Source: a virus. From it: a stretch of 64,000 nt of DNA. Within the stretch, counting starts at the first letter, position 1. Every line of letters begins with the position of its first letter. Shown here piece after piece: positions 8,810 to 55,220 of the stretch. A program made the translations under genes and the position numbers. The notes under the pieces are model-generated. The model was given only the letters and a program-made list of their open reading frames with translations. It was not told where the DNA came from and made no database searches. The stretch lies in the IMG/VR virus record IMGVR_UViG_3300042910_000038. One strand, given 5' to 3'.

Positions 8810-8828
8810 ACTAGGAGGCTGAGCAACC

Positions 8829-8939
8829 ATGGTCACGCCCATTGACATATCCGCCTTGCTGAACACCTTGATACCGATAATCTTCCTAGTGCTAATCATA
8901 AGTGTTCTAACAAGCCTCCTAAAGGAGTTCAAATTCTAG
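8829..8939 (+). CDS. 36-aa hydrophobic coat-like protein 1
   Basis: Manual ORF MVTPIDISALLNTLIPIIFLVLIISVLTSLLKEFKF after AGGAGG RBS. Confidence 0.8.
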   Translation: MVTPIDISALLNTLIPIIFLVLIISVLTSLLKEFKF

Positions 8940-8950
8940 GGTGATGTAAC

Positions 8951-9079
8951 ATGGTGACACCAATAGATGTAAGCGCCATCATAAACATGATAGTTCCAAT
9001 AATCTTCCTAGTGCTCATCGTCAGCGTCCTAACAAGCCTCATTAAAGAGTTCAAAGGCATCGGGGCTACTGCAACCTAA
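8951..9079 (+). CDS. 42-aa hydrophobic coat-like protein 2 (paralogue of 8829)
   Basis: Manual ORF MVTPIDVSAIINMIVPIIFLVLIVSVLTSLIKEFKGIGATAT after GGGTGA RBS; differences from copy 1 are mostly synonymous or conservative. Confidence 0.8.
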   Translation: MVTPIDVSAIINMIVPIIFLVLIVSVLTSLIKEFKGIGATAT

Positions 9080-10936: not shown

Positions 10937-12394
10937 ATGACGATAGCCGAGCAGATTAAAAGAAGCCTAGACACCATAACCGACTGGGCAAGTTCATGGG
11001 AAATCGCCAACTTCGGAGTATGCTTCAACAAAGCACCATTAACAGTGTTCAACGATGTAATAACGAAATACGCAGATGCCGGAGACTGGCTTGGAGTAGC
11101 ATGCACAGCGAAAATAGCTGAGCTAAACCACTTTGAAACTCCGGTAATAATTCAGAAAATTCAAGATATGCTGACTAATGTCGGAATGTTCACTTCAGCC
11201 AAACTTCCCAAAAACGTTCCAGCAGATGCTGAAACACCCTTCTACGTCAAACAATACGTTATGCTTGAAGGCTACTACTGGTCTGAAAAATTAGATTTCC
11301 AGAAAGAGAAATGGGATGCAATATCGGCTTTTAACGCGTTACGTAGTCTAAGATGGAGTCAAGGCAAGCCATTTTACGCATGCAACATCGACACCGGAGC
11401 CGTTAAAAGGCTCTACAGCGGCGAGTGGACAGATTATGCTGCCTTGATGAACGTATGGCTGAAGTTCGGGAAGCCCGAGATTAGGAGAAGCGTAGTTGAA
11501 ATGGCTGAGGATGAATGGACAAGCTTTATGAGCAACTGTTGGCAAGCAGACCACTTCATAGATGCGCCGGAAAAGCCAAACTGGGAAATGCACGCTCCAG
11601 TAGTCCTAAGACAGCTCGTAAAGTTCCTACTCAGCGTCCCCTATCCAGCGGGGCAAATTAAAAGCGACGTGCACGTTAGGTACCTTAAAGACTTCTGGGA
11701 CTCACCACAATGGGGAGGCAAAAACGTAGTTGTAGAGCATAATCCAGACTCAATAAAAGAACGGTTAGATGGAACCTTTGGCGCAGTAGGATTGTTACAT
11801 ACCTTTTATAGGGCGCTTGACGACTTCGACAAGAACGCTTTCAGGCAAATGCTGACTGGTGAAAAAGCGCCTAAAATGGCGGATGCACTCCTTGGCTCAG
11901 CATTATTTGACTCAGCATCAAACCGTTTCAGAAACTCTCCAACAGATTCGGCAACAGACTACGCAACGTGCTTGGGCTGTGCAACACTTTTCTTGGAGGC
12001 AATATTGCCAAATACGGGAAGCTTGGCTGTGCCGTTGGCTTGCGAAGGGTTAGATGAATGGGGGATAGACTTCTTCAACTCCCACCACTTCGGCTTCAAC
12101 TATGATGCTAGAACCATTAAAGTGCCAGTTTATGCTGGTAAATTAAAATTCAACTTTGGAACACAAACCGTTGAAGAAAGCTTCCCATATGATGGTATAT
12201 ATACTGTAACGTTCAGTCAAGACTGGAACAGAATTTTAAGTAAAACTAAAGTGGCGGATTTAGATGCCGAATACATCATCCCACCCAAAACGCTAACCAC
12301 TGTTGAAGCGTTAACCTCATCCTTCGCCGTTATGCTTTTAGCTTTCCCATTATGGTTCTTCGGAAAAGAAATAGTAAAGTATGTTAGGAGGTAG
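10937..12394 (+). CDS. Large helical (possibly alpha/alpha-barrel-like) protein with C-terminal membrane helix
   Basis: Trp/Tyr-rich helical composition; tail SFAVMLLAFPLWFFGKEIVKYVRR. Confidence 0.55.
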   Translation: MTIAEQIKRSLDTITDWASSWEIANFGVCFNKAPLTVFNDVITKYADAGDWLGVACTAKIAELNHFETPVIIQKIQDMLTNVGMFTSAKLPKNVPADAETPFYVKQYVMLEGYYWSEKLDFQKEKWDAISAFNALRSLRWSQGKPFYACNIDTGAVKRLYSGEWTDYAALMNVWLKFGKPEIRRSVVEMAEDEWTSFMSNCWQADHFIDAPEKPNWEMHAPVVLRQLVKFLLSVPYPAGQIKSDVHVRYLKDFWDSPQWGGKNVVVEHNPDSIKERLDGTFGAVGLLHTFYRALDDFDKNAFRQMLTGEKAPKMADALLGSALFDSASNRFRNSPTDSATDYATCLGCATLFLEAILPNTGSLAVPLACEGLDEWGIDFFNSHHFGFNYDARTIKVPVYAGKLKFNFGTQTVEESFPYDGIYTVTFSQDWNRILSKTKVADLDAEYIIPPKTLTTVEALTSSFAVMLLAFPLWFFGKEIVKYVRR

Positions 12395-24863: not shown

Positions 24864-27299
24864 GTGAGCGACTTCCTGCTCTTTCACGGCATGATAGCAT
24901 ATGATGAGCAGTTTGCTGGAGCCAAACAGAACGTTGAAGAGATGTCTCCATACGTCGACTATGTAATATTAGTCGTGGAAAAACAAAGACCATTTACAGA
25001 AGAACAGAAAAAAGAACTTTTAAAATATCCAAACGTGATACTGCTTGAATTGCCTTTTGAAGACAACATCCCAAGCTTTCGTAATAAATATTTAGATAAA
25101 GCTAAAGAAATAATGAAACAGCAAAACAAGCCCGGATGGATGGCAGTCCTAGATACAGACGAGCACTTCTGCAAGGAGCTAAGAGAGAACCTCAGAAAAA
25201 TAATTGCTGAATATGATGCGAAGAATTACACGCAGCTTGGCGTTAGATGCCTTGAAGGTTTCGAAGTTCACGACTGGATGGATGACATTGACAAGCTTAA
25301 AGAGTCCGCTACAAATCTGAGGCAGTCAAGCTATTTCAAAAGTTTGATATTCCGCATCTGTTGCGACCAGTTGCATTACGCTGGAATCGGAAATCCGCCA
25401 AACGCCGTCCACGAGTGGTGGGGGTGTCCTGTCCATCCGTGGAAGCCGATTTATCTGCCGCCTCATCTGACATACTCTCATATAAAAAGCAGTTTAACTA
25501 TATGGCGTAACTCGGCTAGAAACGTATATTTAAACGGAGGGGGCAACAACCTCGGCGACAAGGTGCCCGAATGGGTTGAGCTTCGCAGCATCTGCAATGC
25601 TTTAGGCATATCTTGTTGGCGTGAGTATGAAGCCTATTTAAAGAGGGGCAACGTTGACCCGTTGCTTAAAAAGTTTCTGATTAAGTGTTTGGATATGCCT
25701 AGAACGGATTTTGGCGTCGAGTATAGGCAAATGTGCGTGAGTGGAGATACCTTGGTAGTTACACCTAACGGAGTAAAACCCATTAAGGATTGTAAGGGGG
25801 AAAAGTATGTTTTAGGTTTTGACTTTCATCGAGGAAAAGTTGTATGGGCTTTGATTTTAGATTATTTCTGTACCACGTCTGATGATATTTATACAGTTGA
25901 AACTGCAAATCATCGCTTACGAATAACAGGCGATAACGAAGTTTGGACTGAGAAAGGCTGGGTTCCAACCGAAAAACTTAAGAAGCATAGACTACTAACA
26001 CTAAATTTAGTGACGTTAGACGATGCCACTCAGGTGGACTCCGGAAGAAATACGTATTCTAAAGGAAAATTACCAGCACATGACCATAAAAGAACTGCAA
26101 CAGAAGTTCTTTCCAAATCGAAGCCTTGGCTCTGTTCGTGGGAAGATAGAGAAGTTACACTTAACCAAGGGCAAAATCAAAAGATGGACAACGGAAGAAG
26201 TGGAAATATTAACGAAAGCTTATCGAGCGAAAGTTCCCTTGTCACAGATACCATTAGAGAGGAGTTATCAGGCTATAGCAGTAAAGGCACAAAGGTTGGG
26301 ATTGGCAAGAAAACAGAGTTTTTACATGAAGAACATAGAGAAGATGAAAGATACAGAATGGGCATACCTAGCGGGGTTGATAGATGGGGAGGGAACAATC
26401 ACAATAACAATTTCTCAAAAAGGTTCCAAAATCGAGATGAGACCACGAGTTGTGATTTCAAATTCGTGTCCAAGGCTTGTAGCGTGGTTGAAAGAGAGGT
26501 TGAGTTATGTGCCACGACGCGCAGCTCAGGGTCGAGACGTTCGGAGACGTTATACAATCCCAAATTACATAATCAATGTTACTGGGTTGAGGGAAGTGAA
26601 AGAAATCTTGGAGAAAACGTTGCCTTATTTGATAGTGAAGAAAGAGCAGGCAGAAATAGTATTGGAATATATCCGGGGAAGGAAGAAAGGGATGCCATAC
26701 GTGGAGAGGGACTTCGAACTTTTGTTGAAGGTAAGAAGATTAAACTTGCGTGGGAGCAAGTTAGAAAGATTCGAAAGGAGATTTGCAGAGTTAAAGAGGT
26801 TGTATATGACTTTACGACGTCAACGGGGAACTTTTTCGCGAATGGCATTCTGATTCATAACTGTTTATGGTATTTTGCCATGCATCCGGATGAGCTTACG
26901 CCTGAAATATTGTTTAAGATTAAGAATCCGCCTAAAATGACGCCTGAACAAGAAGTGGAATGGTATGTGATTTCCCAGTATCGTTATGTGCTTGGAAGAG
27001 AACCTGATGATGCTGGTAGGCGGCATTATGTTCAGGCTATTTTGGAGGGTAGGATTAGGCGTGAGGATTTGCCTAAAATACTGATGATGAGCGAGGAGTA
27101 TAGGCAGAAGTTTAACATTGATGAGACTGTTCAATGGGTTATAAACTGTTACCGTCAAGTGTTGAAGCGAGACCCGGATGAGGAGGGCTTACGGGTCTAC
27201 GTTGACCACATTGTTAAGGGAAGAATAAACAAGGAAGACTTGCCTAGGATATTAATGGAAAGCGACGAATACCGCTCAAGGTTTGGGGGAAGGAGTTGA
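24864..27299 (+). CDS. GT2-like glycosyltransferase containing an intein, with two C-terminal DUF4214-like repeats
   Basis: N-terminal GT-A-like region with RN...VLDTDE; intein; YRxVLxRxPDxxG repeats twice; about 435 aa after splicing. Confidence 0.7.
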   Translation: MSDFLLFHGMIAYDEQFAGAKQNVEEMSPYVDYVILVVEKQRPFTEEQKKELLKYPNVILLELPFEDNIPSFRNKYLDKAKEIMKQQNKPGWMAVLDTDEHFCKELRENLRKIIAEYDAKNYTQLGVRCLEGFEVHDWMDDIDKLKESATNLRQSSYFKSLIFRICCDQLHYAGIGNPPNAVHEWWGCPVHPWKPIYLPPHLTYSHIKSSLTIWRNSARNVYLNGGGNNLGDKVPEWVELRSICNALGISCWREYEAYLKRGNVDPLLKKFLIKCLDMPRTDFGVEYRQMCVSGDTLVVTPNGVKPIKDCKGEKYVLGFDFHRGKVVWALILDYFCTTSDDIYTVETANHRLRITGDNEVWTEKGWVPTEKLKKHRLLTLNLVTLDDATQVDSGRNTYSKGKLPAHDHKRTATEVLSKSKPWLCSWEDREVTLNQGQNQKMDNGRSGNINESLSSESSLVTDTIREELSGYSSKGTKVGIGKKTEFLHEEHREDERYRMGIPSGVDRWGGNNHNNNFSKRFQNRDETTSCDFKFVSKACSVVEREVELCATTRSSGSRRSETLYNPKLHNQCYWVEGSERNLGENVALFDSEERAGRNSIGIYPGKEERDAIRGEGLRTFVEGKKIKLAWEQVRKIRKEICRVKEVVYDFTTSTGNFFANGILIHNCLWYFAMHPDELTPEILFKIKNPPKMTPEQEVEWYVISQYRYVLGREPDDAGRRHYVQAILEGRIRREDLPKILMMSEEYRQKFNIDETVQWVINCYRQVLKRDPDEEGLRVYVDHIVKGRINKEDLPRILMESDEYRSRFGGRS
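25734..26861 (+). mobile_element. Intein (376 aa)
   Basis: Block A CVSGDTLVVTPNG, block B-like LRITGDNEVWT, blocks F/G VYDFTTSTGNFFANGILIHN followed by +1 Cys. Confidence 0.9.
26023..26853 (+). CDS. LAGLIDADG homing endonuclease with N-terminal Myb-like repeats, encoded in the +1 frame inside the intein
   Basis: WAYLAGLIDGEG; WTPEEIRILKENY and WTTEEVEILTKAY; 26023 is +1 relative to frame 24864. Confidence 0.88.
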   Translation: MPLRWTPEEIRILKENYQHMTIKELQQKFFPNRSLGSVRGKIEKLHLTKGKIKRWTTEEVEILTKAYRAKVPLSQIPLERSYQAIAVKAQRLGLARKQSFYMKNIEKMKDTEWAYLAGLIDGEGTITITISQKGSKIEMRPRVVISNSCPRLVAWLKERLSYVPRRAAQGRDVRRRYTIPNYIINVTGLREVKEILEKTLPYLIVKKEQAEIVLEYIRGRKKGMPYVERDFELLLKVRRLNLRGSKLERFERRFAELKRLYMTLRRQRGTFSRMAF

Positions 27300-41308: not shown

Positions 41309-41673
41309 TTCTTCCCCTCTTCCTTCTTCTTCAGTAGCATATAAGTTAATTTAATGTAGAGTTTAGTCATCGCTTCTATGACCGCCTCGCTGACTCCTTT
41401 AAGCCTCTCTTTAACTTTCTCTTTGATTAATGAGATGACGAGTTCAGCGTATCTAGGTGAGACTCCATAGTCTCTGAGGAGTTCTTCAATTTCTCTTTTA
41501 ATGTCAGCCCAGTCTGCCTTCACAGCCTCAAATAAATCGCTAAGTGATATTTCACGAATTATTAATTCTTCAGGGATTTCAGAAAGATAATAGTATGTGA
41601 TGGTTTCAGACGCTGTTGTCCAAGTTTGCGGTGTAACCGTCCAAGTTTGCGGTGTAACAGTCCAAATTTGCAT
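41305..41673 (-). CDS. Hypothetical protein with N-terminal TVTPQTW tandem repeat
   Basis: 21-nt repeat encoding (W)TVTPQT twice. Confidence 0.5.
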   Translation of the reverse strand: MQIWTVTPQTWTVTPQTWTTASETITYYYLSEIPEELIIREISLSDLFEAVKADWADIKREIEELLRDYGVSPRYAELVISLIKEKVKERLKGVSEAVIEAMTKLYIKLTYMLLKKKEEGKK

Positions 41674-49623: not shown

Positions 49624-50766
49624 TTAGGTTTTCTCTAGGACTTCAAGTATTATCCATGTGTGGCAGTATGGATATTCCCATTCTTCCTCCTCGCATACGA
49701 ATACAACTGTTTTGTCCTTTGCCCATTCTCTGTATATGTCGGCTTTCCTTCTAATCATAACTTCGGGAACTTCCGAGAGAAATCTCCGCTTATACTCTTC
49801 CCATCTTTCCCTCGTCTTCGGACCAGCCTTCCACCATGAAAGCAACTGTGGACTTGGAGCCAAATCCCTATCCCAAACATCAAACACTCCACTCTGCTCC
49901 TTCAAAACCTTCAAGCCTCGCACCCTAACCTCTATAGGAACATAGCGTGTCACCAGAACATAGAACTCATCAGGACGAGGATTCTCAATAACTTCCCTAA
50001 CACTCCTACGCTTAAAACCACTACTCTTAACAGTTTTCTCCCATGCTCTTGCAAGTCTTTTAAGCCGCCTATATCCACTTTCACGCGCCCTAACAAGCTC
50101 ATCAACCTTCTCTGCATGGGCAGGCAACTGCGGCTTATAATATCCTGCTAACTTTTCCTCAACATATTTCTTAGCCTCCTCTATATCCCTTGCCTCGAAA
50201 ACCTCTTCATACTCGGCTGGAGGATAGAGAATTTCCCGTTTCAGCTCCTCAAAATCCTTGATGCTGTGGACATACCAGACGTAAACCTTGTCCTCTTCAT
50301 CATAATATAGTGAATGAATATAATCCGTAGTAGCCGTCCACCAAATACCCGCAGAATCCCTAACCCACTTCAACCTCGAACCATGCACACTTCCACCCAA
50401 ACTTGAACCAGTAACTCCTTTGATGAAACGTTCCCTAACCTCTTCAGGCGTGGGATATTTTGGACTACTGTGATGCTTTGGAATTTTCAGAGCTTCGCCA
50501 TGTCTCAAAGTTTTAATCTTCGGGTAGTACTCTTCAATAATGTCGTCTGGAACACCGTAAAGCCTCAAATAATCAATAACTCCACTATAAGACGCTGTAG
50601 CATACTCACCTACAACAAAAGTCCCATGAACATTCTTAACGGTAACATAATCGCCATACACCCGCTCACGAACCATTAACGTGGCTGGTCCACAAACTTT
50701 ACAGTAATAATTACCCTCTGGAAGCTCAACCGTCCGTTCGCACTTAGGGCATTTATAGACTGGCAT
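49624..50766 (-). CDS. Zinc-leader protein 4, multidomain with C-terminal DUF488-like domain
   Basis: MPVYKCPKCERTVELPEGNYYCKVCGP; WDRDLAPSPQLLSWW..WEEYKRRFLSE..VFVCEE..CH. Confidence 0.65.
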   Translation of the reverse strand: MPVYKCPKCERTVELPEGNYYCKVCGPATLMVRERVYGDYVTVKNVHGTFVVGEYATASYSGVIDYLRLYGVPDDIIEEYYPKIKTLRHGEALKIPKHHSSPKYPTPEEVRERFIKGVTGSSLGGSVHGSRLKWVRDSAGIWWTATTDYIHSLYYDEEDKVYVWYVHSIKDFEELKREILYPPAEYEEVFEARDIEEAKKYVEEKLAGYYKPQLPAHAEKVDELVRARESGYRRLKRLARAWEKTVKSSGFKRRSVREVIENPRPDEFYVLVTRYVPIEVRVRGLKVLKEQSGVFDVWDRDLAPSPQLLSWWKAGPKTRERWEEYKRRFLSEVPEVMIRRKADIYREWAKDKTVVFVCEEEEWEYPYCHTWIILEVLEKT

Positions 50767-50777
50767 TGATTGTCACT

Positions 50778-51125
50778 CTAAATACGGTATCCGAAGCATA
50801 TTAAATCGTAAAACTCAAACAAATACTCGTATTTGCCAGATTCCAGTTCACGCTTCAGAATCTTCTTTAGTATCTCTTCAGCCTCAGCCATAGACACCTT
50901 CATTTCCTTAGCAATCCGCTTGACAACTTCCTTCCTAGGCAAACACGTAGAATCAGAAATACCGTCCCCCTGTTCCCAAATCACATCCTTCGCTATCTCA
51001 AGGGCTTTTTCAACAACATCTTCCTGCTTAACCATCAAGACATCTGGACCACACTTTGAACAGTAATATGTCCCCTCAGGCTTTTCAACCGACCTACCAC
51101 ATTTAGGACAAACATAAACTGGCAT
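50778..51125 (-). CDS. Zinc-leader protein 5
   Basis: MPVYVCPKCGRSVEKPEGTYYCSKCGP. Confidence 0.7.
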   Translation of the reverse strand: MPVYVCPKCGRSVEKPEGTYYCSKCGPDVLMVKQEDVVEKALEIAKDVIWEQGDGISDSTCLPRKEVVKRIAKEMKVSMAEAEEILKKILKRELESGKYEYLFEFYDLICFGYRI

Positions 51126-51131
51126 CCGTTT

Positions 51132-51497
51132 TCACCCAAACCTTGCTTTCATAGCTAATTCTGCCTCTTCGTTTGTCAGTAAGCCTCGCCTGTTCCAAGC
51201 CGCAACGAAATCCTGCCACAAAACATTCTTCTGCGTAGGCGTCAAAGTCCTATCCAATTCCAGAACACTCCAAACAGCATGCATAGCCGGATGACTCCTA
51301 ATAACGTCCATAGGCTCAGCGGGAACACCGCCCGGAACAGCAGCCAACTCCTTAAGCGTTGTCTTCCCAACAAACTTCATAATGTGCGCCGGACCGCAAA
51401 CCTTGCAATAATAAGTTCCCGGCTTCTCCATAGCAACCTCTCTTCCACACTTTGGACACCTGTAAACCCAACGCTCTTCAGCCAATATTCCACCCAA
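51132..51497 (-). CDS. Zinc-leader protein 6
   Basis: WVYRCPKCGREVAMEKPGTYYCKVCGP. Confidence 0.7.
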   Translation of the reverse strand: MGGILAEERWVYRCPKCGREVAMEKPGTYYCKVCGPAHIMKFVGKTTLKELAAVPGGVPAEPMDVIRSHPAMHAVWSVLELDRTLTPTQKNVLWQDFVAAWNRRGLLTNEEAELAMKARFG

Positions 51498-51513: not shown

Positions 51514-52185
51514 TCACCTATATTTGCTTAATGTTTTCACTATGGCGTTCACCTCTCTCCTGCTCTGTTTATGTTTAACCATCCTTGCAAGCTTCTGGCA
51601 GTCTCTGAAATCCTTAGAGCCAAGCTTGTTCCAAACGCAGAAAGCAATATACCTCGCAATCTTCGGGTTAACCTTCTCCCTCCTCACAAGCACGTTCTTG
51701 GCAACTTGAAGAAACTCGTTCCACTTGTAAGGCTTAAACTTCAAAACAACAAAACGGCTCAGCAACTCCTCAGGCAACTCACTGACATCGTTAGCCGCCC
51801 CAACCACAATAGTTTCAAGCCTCTCAACCCTACTCCTCTTATGCAAAGTCTCAACAACAAGACCAGTCTCCATAAGCGACAGCAAAACAGCCAAACACTC
51901 CCTATCAGCCACCTTGTCAATCTCGTCCAGAAGCAAAATCTTGGGCTTCTGCTCAAGCAACAGCCAAGTCAATCCAGCGCGACTTAACCGAGAGCCAAGC
52001 ACATACGCTGAACCCTTAACCCTCTGCAGACACAACAGAAACAAAGACTTCGCGGACGCTGGCGGACCATAAAGCAGAAAATGAACTGGAAGACCATCTC
52101 CATGCATGCGCAGAGCCTTCAGGAAAAGCGCCTTAACATCTTCGTATCCGATAATCGGGTCGAAAATGGACGGATTGACTTTCAC
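51514..52185 (-). CDS. Stand-alone AAA+ ATPase (MCM/RuvB-like)
   Basis: Walker A YGPPASAKS, Walker B LLLDEIDK, GAAN, SRF. Confidence 0.85.
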   Translation of the reverse strand: MKVNPSIFDPIIGYEDVKALFLKALRMHGDGLPVHFLLYGPPASAKSLFLLCLQRVKGSAYVLGSRLSRAGLTWLLLEQKPKILLLDEIDKVADRECLAVLLSLMETGLVVETLHKRSRVERLETIVVGAANDVSELPEELLSRFVVLKFKPYKWNEFLQVAKNVLVRREKVNPKIARYIAFCVWNKLGSKDFRDCQKLARMVKHKQSRREVNAIVKTLSKYR

Positions 52186-52200
52186 ACTTTACACCCAAAA

Positions 52201-52292
52201 TAAGCGATTGATTGTGTGACTGGCTGATGCGCGTATGGCTAGACCAAAGCCTGTCTGGAAGACCGAGCTGTGTTTGGGGGAAAGTTGGTTTG
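52201..52292 (-). ncRNA. CNNN-periodic unit D (candidate guide RNA)
   Basis: caaa ccaa cttt cccc caaa caca gct cggt cttc caga cagg cttt ggtc tagc cata cgcg cat cagc cagt caca caat caat cgct. Confidence 0.6.
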
Positions 52293-52303
52293 CACCCAAA
52301 AAA

Positions 52304-52402
52304 GGATTGGATGAAGGGATGAAGGGACCCTTGCATGAAGGCTGTACGCGTGCATGCTAGGACGGATGACTGATTACATAACGATTAAGACTTGCCCCGT
52401 TG
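52304..52402 (-). ncRNA. CNNN-periodic unit C (candidate guide RNA)
   Basis: taat cagt catc cgtc ctag catg cacg cgta cagc ctt catg caag ggtc cctt catc cctt catc caat. Confidence 0.6.
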
Positions 52403-53074
52403 TTAATCCACTTTTTCGAATTTTACTATTTTTACCTTTCCCCTTTTGGTTGGTCCAAACTTGGCTGTTTCCAGTGCATGTAGTATTTGAGCCATTTCGT
52501 CATCTTCCAATGGTGCCACCCCGTTTGATGTTATCGTGCATGGTATGTTTATGTCTTTTATCACCTCGTACGCTATGTCAGCTCTGACTTTTTCTCCTGA
52601 CCTCTGCTTCGAATGTCTGGTCTCGCTTACAATATCGATGTAAAGCTTGTCTTTAACGTCTTCCAGCGGAACTTCAAACCATTCCGGCTCAATAGTGACC
52701 AGTGCAACTTTTGGCAGTTTATACCCTAAGCTTTTAATCTCTTTGCACACCTGCCTTAGGGTAGTGTCTAAAATTCCGAAATGTCCGCCAAAGGGTATCA
52801 ACAGCTTTTTCCCGTCTTTGCTCCGTGGGAAAGTTCTGAACGGTATTTCTTTCTCTTCAGACTTAACGACGCTTGTCGTCCTTGAACGTTTCTTAGACTT
52901 CTCCTTTGTCACTTCTTTGTTAGTAACTGCAATAATTTGTTTCTCTGGAAGTTGGTACCACATTGTATACTGCGGGTCCTGCCTTGCATAGAGCCTTTCA
53001 ATCTTAAACTCAACGTTCCAAGCAACGTCCTTAGACCTCCAAGCATTAATAAGAGGCGTCAAATCCGTAGCCAT
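52403..53074 (-). CDS. Solitary Cas7/Csf2-like RAMP-fold protein (putative)
   Basis: Strand WNVEFKIERLYAR, FPRSKDGKKLLIPFGGHFGILDTTL, AYEVIKDINIPCTI, helix, Gly-loop FGPTKRG then KVKIVKFE; start reassigned to ATG 53074. Confidence 0.55.
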   Translation of the reverse strand: MATDLTPLINAWRSKDVAWNVEFKIERLYARQDPQYTMWYQLPEKQIIAVTNKEVTKEKSKKRSRTTSVVKSEEKEIPFRTFPRSKDGKKLLIPFGGHFGILDTTLRQVCKEIKSLGYKLPKVALVTIEPEWFEVPLEDVKDKLYIDIVSETRHSKQRSGEKVRADIAYEVIKDINIPCTITSNGVAPLEDDEMAQILHALETAKFGPTKRGKVKIVKFEKVD

Positions 53075-53119
53075 TTTCCCACTTTCCTCCTTTTCCACTT
53101 TAGGCTTACACCCAAAAAA

Positions 53120-53204
53120 GTTGACAGACTGCCTGGAAGGGTGTACGTCTGGTTAAGTGAATGGCTGATTGGTCTCTTCAGGGAGTGCACGCCTGAAAGT
53201 CTGG
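53120..53204 (-). ncRNA. CNNN-periodic unit B (candidate guide RNA)
   Basis: 21 tetramers in unbroken register; 18 start with C, 14 have A second. Confidence 0.65.
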
Positions 53205-53213
53205 CACCCAAAA

Positions 53214-53286
53214 GTTGGGCGACTACATGACTGTCTGTTTGAATGTGGATTGAACGCTGAGTGTCAACTACACGCTGGACTGAGTG
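53214..53286 (-). ncRNA. CNNN-periodic unit A (candidate guide RNA)
   Basis: cact cagt ccag cgtg tagt tga cact cag cgtt caat cca catt caaa caga cagt catg tagt cgcc caac. Confidence 0.6.
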
Positions 53287-53303
53287 CACCCAAAAAGGCT
53301 TGT

Positions 53304-53594
53304 TTACATGAATTCGTGTAGGTATGCGTTTTTTGCTTGTAGCTTGTAGTCCGCCAAGACTTTTGGTATAGGTTCGCCTTTTGCAACTCTGTTTATAGCT
53401 TCTAAAAGCATTTCTCGACCTCTAAACCCTTCACTTTTAGGGTAAATCCGGTCTTCATTCTCAAACATAAACTGCAACAGCCTCAAAACATCTTCAACAG
53501 TAAAAACCTCTTCACCATCCGTTTCTAACAACAGAATCCAATCTCTCTCATGCTTTTTACCCTTAACATAACGCCATCTGACCACAAACAACAC
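53304..53594 (-). CDS. Hypothetical protein
   Basis: Follows motif variant; directly upstream of unit A. Confidence 0.55.
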   Translation of the reverse strand: MLFVVRWRYVKGKKHERDWILLLETDGEEVFTVEDVLRLLQFMFENEDRIYPKSEGFRGREMLLEAINRVAKGEPIPKVLADYKLQAKNAYLHEFM

Positions 53595-54521: not shown

Positions 54522-55220
54522 TTAGCGGGTGGGTCGGGCGTACGTTTTAGGTTGCAACATCTTAAACGATATGCTTCTTGAAGCCCATATTAGGTAGAAA
54601 ACCTCGCTTATCACAGCTTTCACATCTCCAATATTTCTTGTGAAGACATTTCTTTCAATGTGGATGTGGACTGCCGGCAAACCATACCACTGATGGAAGT
54701 GAAGCTGGTCAACTCTCACATGGTGTATTCCAAACCAGTCCCGTATGAAGTCATAAGACTTTTCCGAAGTTGCCAACGCTACTGGAATGTCGCCTTCAAC
54801 CCTGAACATTCCAGAATCCGGAAAATATTCAAAGGAAACTGAGCCAACAGTCGCGGTTAAAGCGTAGTCGCTAAACCTTTCAAAAGGAAGAATCCACGGG
54901 TAGATTCCGCACTCTGCAAGGCGAAGCTCAACCCTTCTTCTAAACTCTCTATCCTGATAATCCAGCGTCATTATGGTCGCGCCGTAAGCTTTTGCACGGA
55001 CAGAAAAACCGCGTGCAGTCAAATCCTCAATAAGCTCTCTAATAAGCTTCTTAACCTCTTCTGGAAAACCCTCGGGAATTTCGCGTCTAACAACAGCTTC
55101 TTCCCCGTTTGGGTTTCCAACCTTAACCATCAGGGCTTGTGGACCACACTTGGCACAGAAATACCTGCCCAAGGGCTTTTCAACTGTTCGCCCGCACTTA
55201 ACACACTTGTAAGTCGGCGT
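54522..55220 (-). CDS. Zinc-leader protein 7 (ACG at the start position)
   Basis: Frame extends upstream of track start: ACG-PTYKCVKCGRTVEKPLGRYFCAKCGP. Confidence 0.6.
   Translation of the reverse strand, partial: TPTYKCVKCGRTVEKPLGRYFCAKCGPQALMVKVGNPNGEEAVVRREIPEGFPEEVKKLIRELIEDLTARGFSVRAKAYGATIMTLDYQDREFRRRVELRLAECGIYPWILPFERFSDYALTATVGSVSFEYFPDSGMFRVEGDIPVALATSEKSYDFIRDWFGIHHVRVDQLHFHQWYGLPAVHIHIERNVFTRNIGDVKAVISEVFYLIWASRSISFKMLQPKTYARPTR

Follow-up and report, generated by a model that had tools for sequence, protein, structure and literature searches.

A RAMP gene flanked by four-base arrays

The DNA analysed in this study (hereafter the window) is the 64,000-nucleotide (nt) stretch of the IMG/VR virus record IMGVR_UViG_3300042910_000038, which was found in DNA runs of hot-spring and sediment metagenomes and in no RNA run. 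On its minus strand lies P0001, an intact open reading frame (ORF) for a protein with the fold of the RAMP superfamily and its Cas7-type members, flanked on both sides by non-coding arrays of a four-base repeat, C-R-N-N (Table 1). The 229 nt upstream and 217 nt downstream of the gene are split by the motif T(4-6)GGGTG into four units of 74-102 nt, each with about 8-21 repeats. A first-pass annotation, made from the sequence alone, had recognised a RAMP/Cas7-like protein here and called it solitary, a description that has to be given up: both flanks consist of four-base arrays on the gene's own strand, and the same arrangement recurs throughout the family (16/16 loci).

The accompanying claim that the surroundings hold neither cas genes nor a CRISPR array was borne out. 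No CRISPR-like repeat array and no tRNA were found in the 64-kb window, no cas family appeared among the 40 window ORFs scanned with Pfam or PHROGs (which cover the small ORFs in part), and the homologue loci yielded no cas genes either. P0001 lies outside any cas operon or CRISPR array and does not belong to a canonical CRISPR effector, a role that the annotation had thought unlikely. Its ATG at 53074 is preceded by GGAGG, with a GTG at 53098 as an alternative start, and a nearly identical leader is carried by the related locus L007.

Table 1. Coordinates of the P0001 cassette in the window and elements of the modelled protein
Feature	Position	Strand	Details
Whole cassette (units A and B, gene, units C and D), 1.1 kb	52200..53304	-	occurs or is missing as a single block in related hot-spring genomes
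Vipr-like (Cas7-fold, single-RRM RAMP) gene, P0001	52403..53074	-	intact ORF, 223 codons/amino acids
Gene leader	53075..53116	-	TTTGGGTG motif, then GGAGG ribosome-binding site, then ATG; read from the sequence
Upstream non-coding unit A, 74 nt, (CRNN)n	53213..53286	-	C fraction 0.31; autocorrelation of C at lag 4, z 4.8
Upstream non-coding unit B, 88 nt	53117..53204	-	21 in-phase CRNN repeats; top lag-4 window of 64 kb (start 53121)
Downstream non-coding unit C, (CRNN)n	52301..52402	-	begins directly after the stop codon; second-best lag-4 window of 64 kb (start 52301)
Downstream non-coding unit D, 93 nt, (CRNN)n	52200..52292	-	C-rich, lag-4 periodic
Unit-delimiting motif T(4-6)GGGTG, five copies	~53287-53296, 53205-53213, 53109-53119, 52293-52303, 52192-52202	-	
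P0001 strand	residues 17-29		AF2 model
P0001 strand-rich insert	residues 30-94		AF2 model; middle part of low confidence
P0001 F82-x-R84...D87-G88...I93-P94...G96-G97..G100			AF2 model; leads into helix 101-116
P0001 long hairpin with 'YE' strand	residues 144-183		AF2 model
P0001 helix	residues 191-203		AF2 model
P0001 glycine loop F206-G207-P208-T-K-R-G212			AF2 model; between helix 191-203 and strand 214-222
P0001 last strand	residues 214-222		AF2 model

The P0001 family and its predicted structure

An exhaustive phmmer search of 1.84 billion representatives returned 22 cluster representatives related to P0001 at E<1e-3, the best of them at E 1e-80 with 59% identity, and a word-indexed profile search added ~18 further relatives. 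By these sequence comparisons P0001 is conserved well beyond chance. Two columns of the family are invariant (F82 and G212) and six are conserved at 90% or more (G96, G97, G100, P188, G207 and P208), matching the motif residues that the first-pass annotation had picked out. The conserved columns are RAMP hallmarks: helix 1 is entered through G96-G97..G100, and an F-G-P-x-x-R-G loop precedes the last strand. The aspartate that follows strand 1, D33, falls in a variable column, occupied by an invariant glycine in an 18-member high-GC clade.

P0001 has no significant match in Pfam, PHROGs, NCBIfam or PADLOC, nor do its relatives (a 20-member alignment, A1, against Pfam and a 37-member alignment, A2, against PADLOC), and a profile search of the PDB with A1 gave nothing relevant. 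The sole RAMP-related profile match among the members of both alignments is that of one protein to Cmr1, at E 0.014. Pattern-based and tblastn searches recovered no relatives from IMG/VR, GTDB genomes or the INPHARED cultured phages.

An AlphaFold2 (AF2) model built on the 37-sequence alignment reached a predicted local distance difference test (pLDDT) score of 85.8 and a predicted template modelling score (pTM) of 0.75, the single-sequence model being too poor for use (pLDDT 40). The model reproduces the order of elements that had been read from the translation as a single RRM/ferredoxin RAMP: it has the beta-alpha-beta-beta-alpha-beta core of the RAMP superfamily and, between helix 2 and the last strand, the glycine-rich loop. 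When it was compared with the PDB using Foldseek, the top 50 matches were CRISPR effector-complex entries only, the named best ones being of Cas7 type, i.e., type VII Cas7 (8z4j_J, E 1.8e-5), Csm3 (9g9g_D and 6ae2) and Cmr4 (6s6b_I), with probability 1.0 and TM scores of 0.40-0.46. In the ESM Atlas, the nearest structures are clusters of viral hypothetical proteins (TM 0.59-0.61), followed by PF03787 RAMPs (0.57), and a match in BFVD is a phage 'Cas system-associated RAMP superfamily protein' (E 7.8e-4). No Vipr structures, the RAMPs to which P0001 is compared below, were among the matches of the fold searches.

Taken together, the modelled element order, the structure matches and the conserved hallmark columns uphold the annotation's observation and its reading of P0001 as a RAMP with Cas7-like identity. 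Of the two kinds of match whose joint absence the annotation had named as fatal to that reading, the structural one was found and speaks for a RAMP; a significant profile match was not found.

We also modelled three copies of P0001 together (protein only). The interface scored 0.64 by ipSAE (interaction prediction score from aligned errors), with 0.00 as the best score among three controls; the mark was attained in calibration by 20 of the 30 solved homo-pairs and by 1 of the 23 single chains. Between runs, contacts agreed to 66% or more, and partner pLDDT was 76 or higher. The modelled interface is polar and runs head to tail, with residues 1-13 (the N-terminal helix), 98-99, 122-127 and 182-187 of one copy facing residues 19-20, 112-120, 191-205 and 210-223 of the next. 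As a prediction, the three-copy model supports filament-type packing, short of showing it, and its score may partly mirror the likeness of P0001 to solved Cas7 filaments.

Tetranucleotide periodicity of the flanks

Cytosine makes up 0.31-0.35 of units A-D versus 0.11-0.19 of the neighbouring coding segments, and the units have no period of 3 of the kind that codons impose. Phase slips made global Fourier power at period 4 uneven, and the periodicity was therefore measured by autocorrelation and phase tracking. The autocorrelation of C at lags 4, 8 and 12 reaches z values of up to 5.8 in four independent flanks, and the recurrence of C at these lags is likewise present in the flanks of the 98%-identical homologue at L007 and the 59%-identical one at L008. 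In the entire window, the two best lag-4 windows are the two flanks of P0001. Phase tracking resolved the composition of the four slots: C at 0.81-0.84, then A at 0.58 (or A+G at 0.75 in high-GC relatives), followed by two near-uniform positions. As a positive control, the same statistic was applied to phage SUSP1 (KT454805): its published VIPR arrays stood out at lag 5, with G as the recurring base, and no comparable signal appeared at lag 4.

The arrays show no excess of secondary structure (minimum free energy z -1.4 to +0.9, with several units having a minimum free energy near 0), and no Rfam family was found in the window at threshold. The TTTGGGTG motif, usually preceded by more T, occurs in 52 copies on the minus strand (33400-63900) and in none on the plus strand of the window; it stands a few bases ahead of most right-arm gene starts as well as between the CRNN units, and resembles a T-run combined with a GGTG ribosome-binding signal. 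Given that T(4-6)GGGTG also precedes ordinary genes, we regard it as a general expression signal of the element and not as a repeat private to the arrays.

Arrays accompany the gene across the family

The association between gene and array extends well beyond the window. In all 16 homologue loci, which come from hot-spring and other metagenome samples (six were drawn from JGI/ENA metagenomes), the top lag-4 C window lies on the gene's strand and adjoins the gene, down to 22% protein identity, usually directly downstream of it. At L009, C occupies 26 of 27 repeat slots. The arrays grow to 0.6-1.1 kb in L004, L016 and L001, the last being the 1.1-kb case, and comprise 10 or more discrete units separated by array-enriched dividing motifs (CTCAWCGACGTG in L001, CAACGAAGTG in L004). 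The pairing spans genomes of very different composition, from about 44% GC in the window to 59-65% in the arrays of its relatives. Virus-like or mobile-element neighbours (ParB, HNH, DUF932, PDDEXK and STIV_B116-like proteins) are found in the window and at the loci.

Public gene calls overlie some of the four-base arrays, at L001:10850-11602 (250 amino acids), L006:777-1370 (197 amino acids) and L009:213-473 (86 amino acids). These are probably false calls over non-coding guide-like arrays; for annotation, the practical lesson is that public data list long arrays, such as those of L001 and L006, as protein genes.

In L001, the 1.1-kb array is enclosed by strong GC-rich hairpins, one right after the RAMP stop codon (L001:10762-10810) and the other before the next gene (11820-11860); they may act as an attenuator or terminator that sets the ratio of protein to RNA. 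The two high-GC loci L001 (11300-11360) and L004 (10826-10880 and 11102-11145) also have in common a longer conserved in-array element, CAACGAACCGAC.TTCGTGC.TCCGCAACGA.GTG-like, with a short hairpin, which may be the equivalent of a handle or tail.

Array turnover and cassette presence

Between close relatives, the arrays change while the gene stays nearly the same. The P0001 gene is 95.8% identical at the DNA level between the window and L007, whereas for the downstream arrays the alignment does not exceed that of shuffled sequence. Contigs of four other hot-spring runs revealed unit-sized deletions, insertions within arrays and divergence that starts exactly at the stop codon. In some metagenome contigs, unit A is missing as one piece (joint 53213->53305); in others, unit C is replaced or skipped (joints 52313->52399 and 52320->52393).

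The locus as a whole varies in its presence as well. In contigs of two other runs, position 52200 is joined to 53304 (skipping 1103 nt) and position 52167 to 53305 (skipping 1137 nt), indicating that gene and arrays are gained or lost together as a 1.1-kb cassette. The flanking 96-amino-acid ORF and the gene for an AAA+ ATPase lie outside it. This ATPase (51514-52185, minus strand) matches phrog_168, phage clamp loaders, is retained in genomes without the cassette, and follows the arrays in L008 too (1030-1116).

Comparison with VIPR and Cas7-type systems

The closest parallel to this architecture is found in the VIPR systems, described in 2026 preprints as a lone ancestral RAMP with guide RNAs of tandem repeats (bioRxiv 10.64898/2026.04.26.720920, 10.64898/2026.04.26.720927 and 10.64898/2026.10.15.759431). 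What is known of their mechanism comes from the first two of these. The discovery paper reported a large family of RAMPs, Vipr, that are minimal and for the most part virus-borne; the long intergenic regions flanking them code for vrRNAs of ~100 nt, each made of 9-16 YNNGG repeats followed by a 3' tail. Pairing of the NN dinucleotides with double-stranded DNA obeys a one-base-skip rule and silences competing phages and satellites. According to the structural paper, one protomer binds each repeat, with helix 1, the glycine loop and the thumb gripping the fixed GGY bases.

The P0001 locus resembles VIPR, e.g., the type II system of Escherichia phage SUSP1, in several respects. Both have a lone minimal single-RRM RAMP with a glycine loop and a thumb-like hairpin, both are carried by viruses or mobile elements without cas genes or a CRISPR array, and in both the gene is flanked on either side by multi-unit short tandem repeats that combine fixed bases with two hypervariable ones. 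In both, the arrays are hypervariable between close relatives. The units of the window, as delimited in the DNA sequence, agree in size with the ~100-nt vrRNAs, and the head-to-tail oligomer solved for Vipr has its modelled counterpart in P0001. The two differ in the loop (C173/T175/D177-W178-R179 in the solved Vipr, F-G-P-x-x-R-G in P0001) and in the repeat itself. As the locus has the defining architecture of VIPR but neither its repeat length nor its fixed bases, we class it as a VIPR-like variant outside the seven described types.

In the sections of the VIPR reports available to us, all seven types are pentanucleotide (YNNGG, NNNGG, YNNNG and NNNNG), and the legend of Fig. S17 speaks of a 'pentanucleotide motif across types'. 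Across 376 million intergenic regions surveyed with a language model, periodic clusters were recovered at 60-79, 18 and 5 nt and, in a few cases, at 10, 8 and 7 nt; the non-canonical VIPR motifs of that survey are all 5-mers, e.g., GAC/NN and CAC/NN. In the accessible part of the third paper, we found no mention of period-4, tetranucleotide or archaeal systems. Thus, while VIPR as a kind has been known since 2026, tetranucleotide C-R/N-N arrays look undescribed, as far as the available VIPR texts and legends go.

The Cas7 backbones (Csm3, Cmr4, type VII Cas7 and Csf2) are the best structural matches and have the same RRM core, the loop rich in glycine that precedes the last strand and a P-x-G-G..G..K..L-R-like entry into helix 1. 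Their filaments run along single-stranded RNA, which is bound in a 6-nt register (PMC7937560). Unlike P0001, which has neither operon nor CRISPR array, these subunits belong to cas operons that also encode Cas5, Cas10 or Cas11 and are accompanied by CRISPR arrays, and the catalytic aspartate that follows strand 1 in Csm3, with a conserved equivalent in Csf2, is not conserved in the P0001 family. The type IV-B Csf complex, which is borne by mobile elements and has also been found in an archaeal virus (PMC10541130), is a Cas7-like filament, assembled on non-CRISPR RNA in the absence of a CRISPR array (PMC7937560). However, it needs Csf1, Csf3 (Cas5) and Cas11 and binds heterogeneous RNA, whereas P0001 stands as a single gene beside a sequence-periodic array, its presumed RNA partner.

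A probable VIPR-type system with a tetranucleotide code

On balance, we consider it probable that the locus is a VIPR-type system with a tetranucleotide code, in which a minimal RAMP with a single RRM, akin in fold to Cas7, Csm3 and Cmr4, has the four flanking units as its RNA partners. By analogy with the published Vipr-vrRNA structures, the units would be transcribed, and head-to-tail polymerisation along the transcript would place one P0001 protomer on each four-base repeat. Helix 1 (G96-G97..G100) and the glycine loop (F206-G212) would form protein pockets for the fixed C(R) bases, leaving the variable NN dinucleotides exposed for gapped pairing with the DNA of competing mobile elements, which would then be silenced under a skip rule. 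The first-pass annotation had floated the idea of a guide-binding repressor; this is what the VIPR systems, the closest known, were shown to be in the 2026 preprints, and the analogy suggests that P0001 may be one too.

Searches for targets bear little on this proposal. Gapped-guide targets (NN with a skip of 0-2, NNN with a skip of 0-1) in the window and in L007-L009 were as frequent as in shuffled-order controls, and exact gapped or ungapped array patterns had no matches in public viral and genome collections. Little can be read from such blanks, since other mobile elements from the same springs would be the expected targets. Between the arrays and the remainder of the window, contiguous complementarity reached 23/28 and 22/28 at best, versus 19-20 in shuffles; it is weak and likely compositional.

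Several observations weigh against a VIPR-type assignment. The published repeats are 5 nt long and mostly G-based, whereas here the unit is 4 nt, C-R-N-N, with a pyrimidine, C, as the fixed base, so that the published pairing rule cannot simply be transferred. No sequence link to a published Vipr was found, a comparison by hhalign of the P0001 family profile with the single 195-amino-acid Vipr sequence of SUSP1 giving a probability of 0.9%. Unlike in VIPR, no structured, conserved 3' tail was seen on the units and no vap-like accessory gene inside the cassette, which holds gene and arrays only, and the sole conserved element between units of the window is the signal that also stands before ordinary genes. 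We note that the VIPR authors themselves describe little sequence similarity among the RAMPs and that some published systems are without parts, e.g., loci with a single vrRNA.

Alternative explanations

The main rival, which we hold to be unlikely, is a RAMP-RNA particle without guide function. P0001 would then coat its own (CRNN)n transcript, be it for autoregulation of translation, for protection of the transcript or as a structural ribonucleoprotein, and the NN positions would merely be unconstrained. That only C(R) is constrained while NN is near-uniform is compatible with such a particle, and so is the location of the arrays within the gene's own 5' and 3' flanks. However, arrays of up to 1.1 kb with 10 or more units go far beyond the needs of an autoregulatory site, and the nearest characterised systems of such architecture are programmable DNA binders. 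The gain, loss and replacement of units while the gene remains 96% identical resembles the behaviour of guide arrays and likewise counts against a particle devoid of guides.

Three further readings fit worse. The anti-CRISPR decoy raised by the first-pass annotation, i.e., a viral Cas7 mimic that, with or without a decoy RNA, enters or sequesters host type I or III effectors, has gained no support and appears improbable. The protein is indeed virus-borne, has a Cas7 fold and belongs to an accessory cassette, and RNA-based and protein-RNA anti-CRISPRs exist (PMC10651486, PMC11662646). Nevertheless, P0001 has no detectable sequence similarity to any Cas7 family, although a subunit mimic, having to fit into host complexes, would be expected to show some, and D33, at the position of the catalytic aspartate of Csm3 and Csf2, is not conserved. 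The arrays are made of 4-nt units and not of CRISPR repeats, and each gene keeps its own cognate array in the very different genomes described above.

A type III toxin-antitoxin-like pair, with an RNA-binding or RNA-cleaving RAMP restrained by the adjoining repetitive RNA, seems highly improbable. A repetitive non-coding array does stand directly beside the gene of a protein with an RNA-binding fold, and in L001 a strong hairpin lies between gene and array, much as a terminator separates the two in ToxIN. But ToxIN-like systems consist of identical ~36-nt repeats that are processed by a Kid/MazF-like nuclease; the folds are unrelated and the logic of the repeats is different.

Equally hard to sustain is a DNA-level element, with the periodic tracts serving as a replication origin or another single-stranded DNA site bound by the protein: the replication and recombination neighbours (the clamp-loader-like AAA+ ATPase, RadA and ParB) would suit it, but the periodic strand is the sense strand of the gene in 16/16 loci, the units of the window are separated by the same T-run/GGGTG signal as genes, and related genomes without the cassette show that it is dispensable.

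A possible second guide code

Returning to the VIPR-type reading, we tentatively suggest that the family as a whole may represent a second noncontiguous guide code, in which a Vipr-like RAMP reads a C-R/N-N tetranucleotide with one protomer on every 4 nt. Its fixed bases, its filament geometry and probably its skip rule would differ from those of the GGY/NN VIPRs, and its range would extend from archaeal virus-like elements of hot springs to mobile elements of high GC content in other metagenomes. The 2026 reports present VIPR as a form of RNA-guided DNA recognition older than CRISPR, with a gapped code fixed by the 5-nt repeat. If our proposal is true, a 4-nt sister family would imply that the repeat length and the sequestered bases, and hence the code itself, can evolve, and would offer a natural comparison for how the spacing of protomers sets the skip rule. 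It would also extend VIPR-like systems to a hot-spring archaeal virus-like element and provide a smaller repeat unit, with two fixed bases per two guide bases, for programmable DNA binding.

Genomic setting

P0001 lies within a long run of minus-strand genes that encode a RadA/Rad51 homologue, ParB, a DUF488 fusion, several zinc-ribbon proteins and the clamp-loader-like AAA+ ATPase. The plus-strand arm encodes glycosyltransferases, an epimerase, methyltransferases, an intein-bearing protein and a dockerin protein. A near-identical zinc-ribbon leader (CPKCG...YYCxxCGP) is found on otherwise unrelated minus-strand proteins (49624-50766, 50778-51125, 51132-51497 and 54522-55172), one of which is fused to the DUF488 domain. 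The 811-amino-acid protein encoded at 24864-27299 on the plus strand combines a match to an intein splicing domain with two C-terminal DUF4214 stretches. Finally, a 21-nt tandem repeat of 2.6 copies is located just upstream of the RadA-like gene (41618-41671), and a pair of 118-nt direct repeats with 73% identity is found at 8816-9055.
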